From IMG/VR virus record IMGVR_UViG_2740892211_000015, positions 1 to 4,106 of that record: a stretch of 4,106 nucleotides of DNA. One strand, given 5' to 3'. The DNA comes from a virus. Taxonomy: Duplodnaviria > Heunggongvirae > Uroviricota > Caudoviricetes. Below, one piece after another: positions 788 to 1,003 of the stretch. Positions within the stretch are counted from its first letter, which is position 1; the number at the start of each line of letters is the position of its first letter. The translations under genes and the position numbers were made by a program. Below the pieces are notes generated by a model. It did no database searches, was not told the DNA's origin, and saw only the letters and a program-made list of their open reading frames with translations.

Positions 788-1003
788 ATGTACCAGATGG
801 AAAAAATCACAACAGGTGTGTCATACACCACGTCAGCGGTGGGAACGGGCTACTGGTTCCTGCAGTTGCTGGACAGGGTTTCCCCGTCTCAGTGGGCGGC
901 AATAGGCGTGCTGGGGAGTCTGCTGTTTGGGCTGCTGACATATCTGACTAACCTGTATTTCAAAATCAGAGAGGACCGTCGTAAGGCGGCGCGGGGAGAG
1001 TAA
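788..1003 (+). CDS. S: Class II holin (pinholin, phage 21 S / EssQ-like) with dual-start motif: 71 aa from ATG 788, 68 aa from ATG 797
   Basis: Two predicted TM segments ([19 protein letters not shown] and [23 protein letters not shown]) and a charged C-terminus [17 protein letters not shown] at 777-780 sits 7 nt before ATG 788. The 71/68-aa lengths match the S21 71/68 pair as I recall it. The ATG at 710 given by the ORF track has no Shine-Dalgarno and overlaps the terminator, so it is probably not used. Confidence 0.85.

Follow-up and report, generated by a model that had tools for sequence, protein, structure and literature searches.

The gene considered here is S, a class II holin (pinholin) gene in a 4,106-nucleotide (nt) stretch of DNA from a virus of the Caudoviricetes (IMG/VR record IMGVR_UViG_2740892211_000015, positions 1 to 4,106; the whole stretch is called the window), which the list of open reading frames (ORFs), Pfam matches and a terminator scan identify as a 4.1-kb lambdoid late/lysis region of the Shiga toxin (Stx) phage type. 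Two start codons in one frame, ATG788 and ATG797, define products of 71 amino acids (aa; MYQMEK...) and 68 aa (MEKITTG...), and the extension that sets the longer product apart, Met-Tyr-Gln, is without a basic residue. In phage 21 the extra Lys of the 71-aa form keeps its N-terminus on the cytoplasmic face of the membrane and makes that form the antiholin. Judged by sequence comparison, the missing charge is a real, clade-wide departure from the pattern in the rest of the family, a modest and testable variant of a known system. We see about an even chance that both products are made and that the long form is not a charge-based antiholin, being a weak antiholin or none.

The S gene and its N-terminal extension

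Features of the gene and of its start region, including the Shine-Dalgarno (SD) sequences and the transmembrane domains (TMDs):

788-1003, plus strand: S, class II holin (pinholin) gene (PF04971), with its stop codon at 1001-1003
806-871: TMD1, approximately residues 7-28, predicted from the alignment to phage 21 S (S21) and from hydrophobicity
893-958: TMD2, approximately residues 36-57, predicted in the same way
764-780, plus strand: leader hairpin CUUCCG-GAUAA-CGGGAG with SD1 within its 3' arm, a candidate start-selection structure
776-780, plus strand: SD1, GGGAG, 7 nt before ATG788 and 16 nt before ATG797
783-787, plus strand: second SD-like run, GGGGT, outside the hairpin and 9 nt before ATG797

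The S ORF matches PF04971, 'Bacteriophage P21 holin S', over nearly the whole profile (positions 1-63 of 64; E 9e-33; score 112.5 bits, cut-off 26) and is 79% identical to S21 across all 71 residues, free of gaps. Its predicted topology has the build of that family, with about 70 aa, a weakly hydrophobic TMD1 rich in Gly, Ala, Ser and Thr, a TMD2 and a basic C-terminal tail; the mean Kyte-Doolittle hydropathies of TMD1 and TMD2 are 0.71 and 1.42 in the window and 0.52 and 1.44 in S21. RefSeq and GenBank annotate the 71-aa coding sequence (CDS), which RefSeq names 'class II holin family protein'. A 97-aa ORF beginning at ATG710 was rejected as spurious: it crosses the 720-748 terminator, and stop codons break its upstream frame in other loci.

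ATG1 (788-790) and ATG4 (797-799) are separated by TAC CAG (Tyr2, Gln3; 791-796). An alignment of 20 diverse homologues shows no variation at M1 or M4, and ATG-6 nt-ATG or ATG-3 nt-ATG is found in nearly all of 70 species-level genome loci, so this is not a chance pair of ATG codons. A preliminary description of this DNA, made from its letters alone, had pointed out the two in-frame starts with the 71/68-aa spacing of phage 21 and an extension lacking a basic residue, and both observations hold, the second being read directly from MYQ. It had also stated that the longer form of S21 carries an extra Lys. The phage 21 record (OL657228) encodes MKSMDKISTG... and annotates both an 'antiholin, S21-71 product of dual start' and a 'holin class II, S21-68', which agrees with that statement; since the phage 21 N-terminus carries this Lys, the possibility that the canonical S21 N-terminus is likewise uncharged falls away. 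According to secondary statements in the literature, the extra basic Lys limits the exit of TMD1 and thereby makes S21-71 an antiholin (PMC13056207, PMC9636201). Mutagenesis of the S21-68 N-terminus found faster pore formation when K3 was changed to anything but Arg, and found that acidic and hydrophobic residues favour the flip of TMD1 and that polar uncharged residues slowed pore formation in the screen, where a positive N-terminal side chain held it back (bioRxiv 10.1101/2021.04.20.440580).

Extensions were compared across the Stx-type copies from IMG/VR, the counts referring to the 119 copies among the matches listed. MYQ is carried by 87/119, MDQ by 9/119 and MNQ by 8/119, and the remaining 15/119 read IHQ and are without ATG1. 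A K or R in the extension occurs in 0/119, yet Lys or Arg is reachable by one nucleotide change (CAG to AAG or CGG). The residue 2 alleles Y, D and N (TAC, GAC, AAC) reflect polymorphism at nt 791 in these relatives. In the IHQ lineage (L005:1470-1512; the 15/119 within L152-L271) ATA CAT CAG replaces ATG TAC CAG, behind a different leader that has its own hairpin over GGAG; with ATA as the first codon only the 68-aa product is possible, which makes this a natural single-start allele.

Among the 120 best cluster representatives, the basic extensions are MYR (20), MKS (18), MLR (6), MK (4), MMK (3), MHR (2) and MKF (1), and those without positive charge are MYQ (35), MDQ (4), MNQ (3), MFQ (2) and MHQ (1). 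In the species-level loci the lineages outside the Stx type keep exactly one Lys or Arg, the one further exception being L044 (MQ-L), and distant lineages have extensions of two residues: MR-MNN, MR-MSN and MR-MEK in Raoultella, Symbiopectobacterium and Providencia, and MK-M in Yersinia and Sodalis. In the MxxM subfamilies an acidic residue, Asp or Glu, always follows Met4. One copy, from Cronobacter, reads TAT CAA in place of the TAT CGA of relatives that share 93% identity with it, and MYQ behind a different leader is found on a holin body that is 97% identical to a phage 21-type protein with MKS; the charge has therefore been lost more than once, independently. On this comparison most of the family appears to have kept the charge of the extension by selection, and its absence from the Stx/Qin-type clade gives the impression of a stable condition rather than of a sequencing error. 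The window thus has two in-frame Met codons and an SD stem-loop, as in the canonical dual-start motif, and is without the Lys or Arg that the motif places in the extension.

The allele is an ordinary, already annotated, standard Stx/Qin-type S holin. Its region (700-1010) has 100% DNA identity to S of the Stx2-converting phage 86 and 93-95% to that of hundreds of other Stx phages. Of 5,426 complete E. coli genomes, 2,450 contain the holin type, with 8,944 occurrences in all and as many as 15 in one genome; the exact 71-aa protein is found on at least 1,000 contigs, the 68-aa product is called on 340 contigs, and the 90% cluster that holds the window protein together with the MDQ variant has 985 members. 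Surveys of Stx phages class these holins as P21-family pinholins paired with a signal-arrest-release (SAR) endolysin (PMC10462455, PMC8136144), and neither of these two surveys speaks of a dual start or an antiholin in connection with them; our literature search found no publication on the missing charge in the Stx-type extension. E. coli-type holin loci also occur in assemblies labelled Xanthomonas pisi, Bacillota, Nanosynbacter, Veillonella, Segatella, Geobacteraceae and Alkalicoccobacillus (L004, L006, L009, L013, L026, L031, L050, L068). These are mostly short contigs or metagenome-assembled genomes, and they probably represent contamination or mis-binning, not true hosts.

The translation start region

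The hairpin at 764-780 has a predicted free energy (dG) of -8.7 kcal/mol (z -3.08; 2/200 shuffles were equally good), and it provides a predicted structure of the kind that the preliminary description had proposed to look for around 770-800, a start-selection stem-loop. The SD-containing hairpin of phage 21 has a dG of -11.3 kcal/mol (z -3.12), and the spacing of SD1 in the window equals that of the annotated ribosome-binding site of phage 21 (GGAGG 7 nt before ATG1). Conservation of the hairpin was assessed by folding the leaders one by one, each unique sequence on its own. In these individual folds the SD lies in the 3' arm of a hairpin in every subfamily (MYR, MLR, MKS, MRM) while the arm sequences differ (CACCCGC/GCGAGGUG; CACCCCGA/UCGGAGGUG; CACUUCC/GGAGGUG; CCCC/GGGG), and among the Stx-type variants the stem is constant and the loops vary (GAUAA, GAUUG, AGUA, UUGCG). 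RNAalifold predicted zero pairs on a MAFFT alignment of 27 leaders, because the loop lengths differ and the MAFFT alignment is not structure-aware.

Since the start geometry of phage 21 is kept (SD hairpin, 7 nt, ATG1, 6 nt, ATG4), both starts are plausibly used. A crude SD-plus-spacing score, which is rough and ignores mRNA structure, assigns the window -7.4 (start 1) and -5.15 (start 4), and phage 21 -9.2 and -2.3. The exposed GGGGT run ahead of ATG797 is absent from phage 21 and, from its position in the leader, should relatively favour ATG797 and with it the short form.

Exclusive use of either codon has to be weighed here. It is decidedly unlikely, in our judgment, that only ATG797 is significantly used, so that ATG788 would be a vestige of an ancestral dual start and the gene would make a single 68-aa holin and no antiholin. 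Such an arrangement would draw on SD1 being locked in the hairpin while GGGGT is exposed at a workable distance, on the loss of ATG1 in a sizeable lineage (L005 and the 15/119), on the contigs where the 68-aa product is called and on the freedom of residue 2 in the extension to vary. However, ATG788 has the ideal 7-nt spacing from SD1 and the better SD score, a silent ATG directly after a good SD is improbable, and in phage 21 the hairpin is stronger and the spacing the same, yet S21-71 is annotated from ATG1.

The invariance of the second Met, which holds even where it stands at position 3 (MRM, MKM), fits a start codon better than a structural residue. This tells against the converse arrangement, in which only ATG788 would be used, Met4 would be an ordinary internal residue and the gene would make a single 71-aa holin. 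ATG788 does have the best combination of SD and spacing, and annotation pipelines call the 71-aa CDS; the IHQ lineage, however, has ATG797 alone, and the homologous ATG4 of phage 21 yields the active holin. We regard exclusive use of ATG788 as very improbable.

Three further observations concern the leader. The MNQ variant (L149 and seven similar IMG/VR loci) has an A-to-G change between the two SD motifs (GGGAGGCGGGG) that improves SD1; MNQ being coupled to this change, extension and leader variants travel together. Perfect complementarity between the SD region (GCGGAGGUG) and codons 14-17 (CACCUCCGC) is seen in some phage 21-like prophage alleles (L033:1467-1552, also L007, L009, L011 and L016), where the fold has a dG of -28.3 and a z of -2.56; phage 21 itself does not keep the complementary sequence. 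Long-range pairing of the SD with codons 12-17, which appeared in the fold of the window, was rejected as a feature: the phage 21 codons differ, and many Stx-type variants fold otherwise.

Proposed action of the long form

The mechanism that we propose, in which both products are made, would run as follows. With SD1 occluded by the hairpin and the GGGGT run exposed, ribosomes would start at both codons and the 68-aa form would likely predominate. This form would be the effector, building up with TMD1 and TMD2 both membrane-embedded; once TMD1 had flipped to the periplasm, TMD2 would form pinholes, the membrane would be depolarised and the SAR endolysin would be released. Because Met-Tyr-Gln leaves the N-terminal net side-chain charge equal in the two products, the 71-aa form most likely has little or no antiholin activity. 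It would act roughly as a second copy of the holin, and the time of lysis would be set mainly by the total level of S and by intrinsic properties of TMD1, not by a holin:antiholin ratio. The IHQ lineage fits a dispensable long form, as ATG797 alone can serve there if those prophage genes are functional. The suggestion in the preliminary description that the long form may not be a charge-based antiholin thus stands as far as the charge premise and the family pattern go; the loss of inhibition itself we infer.

Several points weigh against this account. The literature search found no experiment on this allele, and both the use of the two starts and the phenotype of the long form are what we infer for it; the SD score is rough, as stated. 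The Stx-type copies are at least 93% mutually identical, and the retention of ATG1 may reflect recency, not selection. All three variants of the extension fall at nt 791, a sign, resting on two or three events, that selection may act on residue 2 or on the +4 base of ATG1; such clustering is hard to reconcile with a functionless long form. Finally, an extension of three residues could slow the exit of TMD1 even when uncharged, through its polar mass or through a free alpha-amino group.

This last point leads to an alternative that we consider unlikely, in which translation begins at both codons and the 71-aa product nevertheless inhibits lysis, by virtue of the extension or of the N-terminus, with no basic side chain. 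By one route the three extra residues, with a polar Gln and with Tyr as an interfacial anchor, could slow the exit of TMD1, and the slowing of S21-68 pore formation by polar uncharged N-terminal residues argues for it. By the other, the short product, beginning fMet-Glu-Lys, may stay formylated and uncharged while the long product, beginning Met-Tyr-Gln, is deformylated and gains a free alpha-NH3+, which would give a difference of +1. In lambda, S105 keeps its formyl group and S107 loses it, and for E. coli peptide deformylase an Asp or Glu at position 2 makes a poor substrate; our literature search on S105/S107 formylation returned only irrelevant papers. The Asp or Glu that always follows Met4 in the MxxM subfamilies favours the alternative, as does the concentration of extension polymorphism at nt 791, from which residue 2 of a translated long form may matter. 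It is harder to reconcile with the 15/119 single-start copies, which manage without a long form. The deformylation route in particular meets MDQ (9/119), which would itself be a poor deformylase substrate and whose added negative charge should speed the flip.

A broader statement, to which we give somewhat less than even weight, is that the Stx/Qin clade, the most abundant among E. coli pinholins, has dropped the charge-based antiholin and kept the two-start hardware, so that the long isoform would be either a co-holin or an inhibitor independent of a basic side chain, for example through differential deformylation.

The ratio of holin to antiholin is the textbook account of lysis timing in lambdoid phages, and in Stx phages lysis also releases Shiga toxin. 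If the proposed mechanism is true, the commonest E. coli pinholin allele has a clock built unlike the phage 21 model, and Stx-phage lysis timing, hence toxin release, is set without a holin:antiholin ratio; timing would come from expression level and TMD1 properties alone, or from a mechanism that does not involve side chains. The interest is narrow and the basis is comparison of sequences. The natural allelic series of MYQ, MDQ, MNQ and single-start IHQ, with the MYR and MKS relatives, provides ready test cases for the charge model.

The lysis cassette and known systems

Other features of the window:

ending at 637: C-terminal part of a NanS-p-like esterase ORF (DUF6645)
720-757, plus strand (scan match 720-748): strong intrinsic terminator, a 12-bp stem followed by a T-run, approximately 30-40 nt upstream of the S start
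1008-1352, plus strand: DUF1327/YdfR-family gene, 114 aa (PF07041, E 2.4e-45), between holin and endolysin
1403-1936, plus strand: endolysin of the phage lysozyme family (PF00959, E 7.7e-24)
2272-2739, plus strand: Rz, i-spanin (PF03245, E 8.4e-49)
2492-2677: Rz1, o-spanin (PF06085, E 1.7e-21), embedded in Rz in another frame
3205-3519: PerC-family transcriptional activator ORF (PF06069, E 3.8e-44)
3601-3825, minus strand: DUF3950 ORF

The terminator sits between the NanS-p-like ORF and S, and expression of S therefore needs read-through; late transcripts of S must presumably cross 720-757 by means of Q antitermination. Downstream of S, the endolysin has a hydrophobic N-terminus rich in Gly, Ala and Ser (YGLSAAVLALIAAGASAP), as would be expected of a SAR-type endolysin, the kind that normally accompanies a pinholin. 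With this predicted SAR endolysin and the Rz/Rz1 spanins, the lysis cassette contains the partners expected for the P21 holin S family, and almost all Stx phages have a predicted SAR endolysin together with a pinholin (PMC8136144).

In Stx-type prophages a DUF1327 gene often lies between S and R. In phage 86 the S gene is identical, but an 807-nt ORF (L001:3993-4799) stands where the window has the DUF1327/YdfR gene, which places a mosaic breakpoint just downstream of S. Outside the S region the window is a different mosaic, the best phage record covering at most about 62% of it. Just 1 nt separates the Rz start from the end of a 50-aa ORF at 2118-2270, whose C-terminus is hydrophobic (AAAFAIRIVAIAVLVWAIRWW) and which has no Pfam match; RefSeq has small hypothetical proteins at the equivalent position in strain JE86-ST02. 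This ORF may be the 'mini-ORF' of the preliminary description, which had proposed that it or the DUF1327-like protein might regulate timing. Nothing was found that links either of them to timing, and the idea was followed no further.

Further downstream, the region at about 3000-3180 is very AT-rich with many T-runs and lies ahead of the PerC-family ORF, a homologue of virulence regulators located between Rz and a putative cos. We take the sequence at 4032-4077 (GGGCGGCGACCTCGCGGGTTTTCGCTATTTATGAAAATTTTCCGG) to resemble lambda cos or the lambda left end; the window would then span the lysis genes to the packaging site. An Rfam scan of the window returned nothing relevant.

Compared with known systems, the window S gene is the same gene as the S holins of the Stx phages 933W, H-19B, VT2-Sakai and phage 86, with nothing of substance different, and EssQ of the Qin prophage is presumably of the MYQ type as well. 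Lambda S (S105 holin, S107 antiholin, sdi stem-loop) shares the dual-start idea, with two nearby in-frame starts and an SD stem-loop able to partition initiation, and its longer product is restrained by N-terminal charge; it differs in belonging to an unrelated family, being a class I holin with three TMDs that makes large holes, and in having a Met-Lys extension with the charge that the window extension is without. Phage 21 S shares with the window gene the Pfam family, the 71/68 spacing, the order of SD, 7 nt, ATG1, 6 nt and ATG4, the SD-containing hairpin, a short form that begins Met-acidic-Lys, and a lysozyme-type endolysin and Rz/Rz1 downstream. It differs in that S and R abut, whereas in the window the DUF1327 gene intervenes, and in that the window has an additional exposed G-run ahead of ATG1. 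The extension is Met-Lys-Ser in phage 21 and Met-Tyr-Gln, with no extra positive side chain, in the window.
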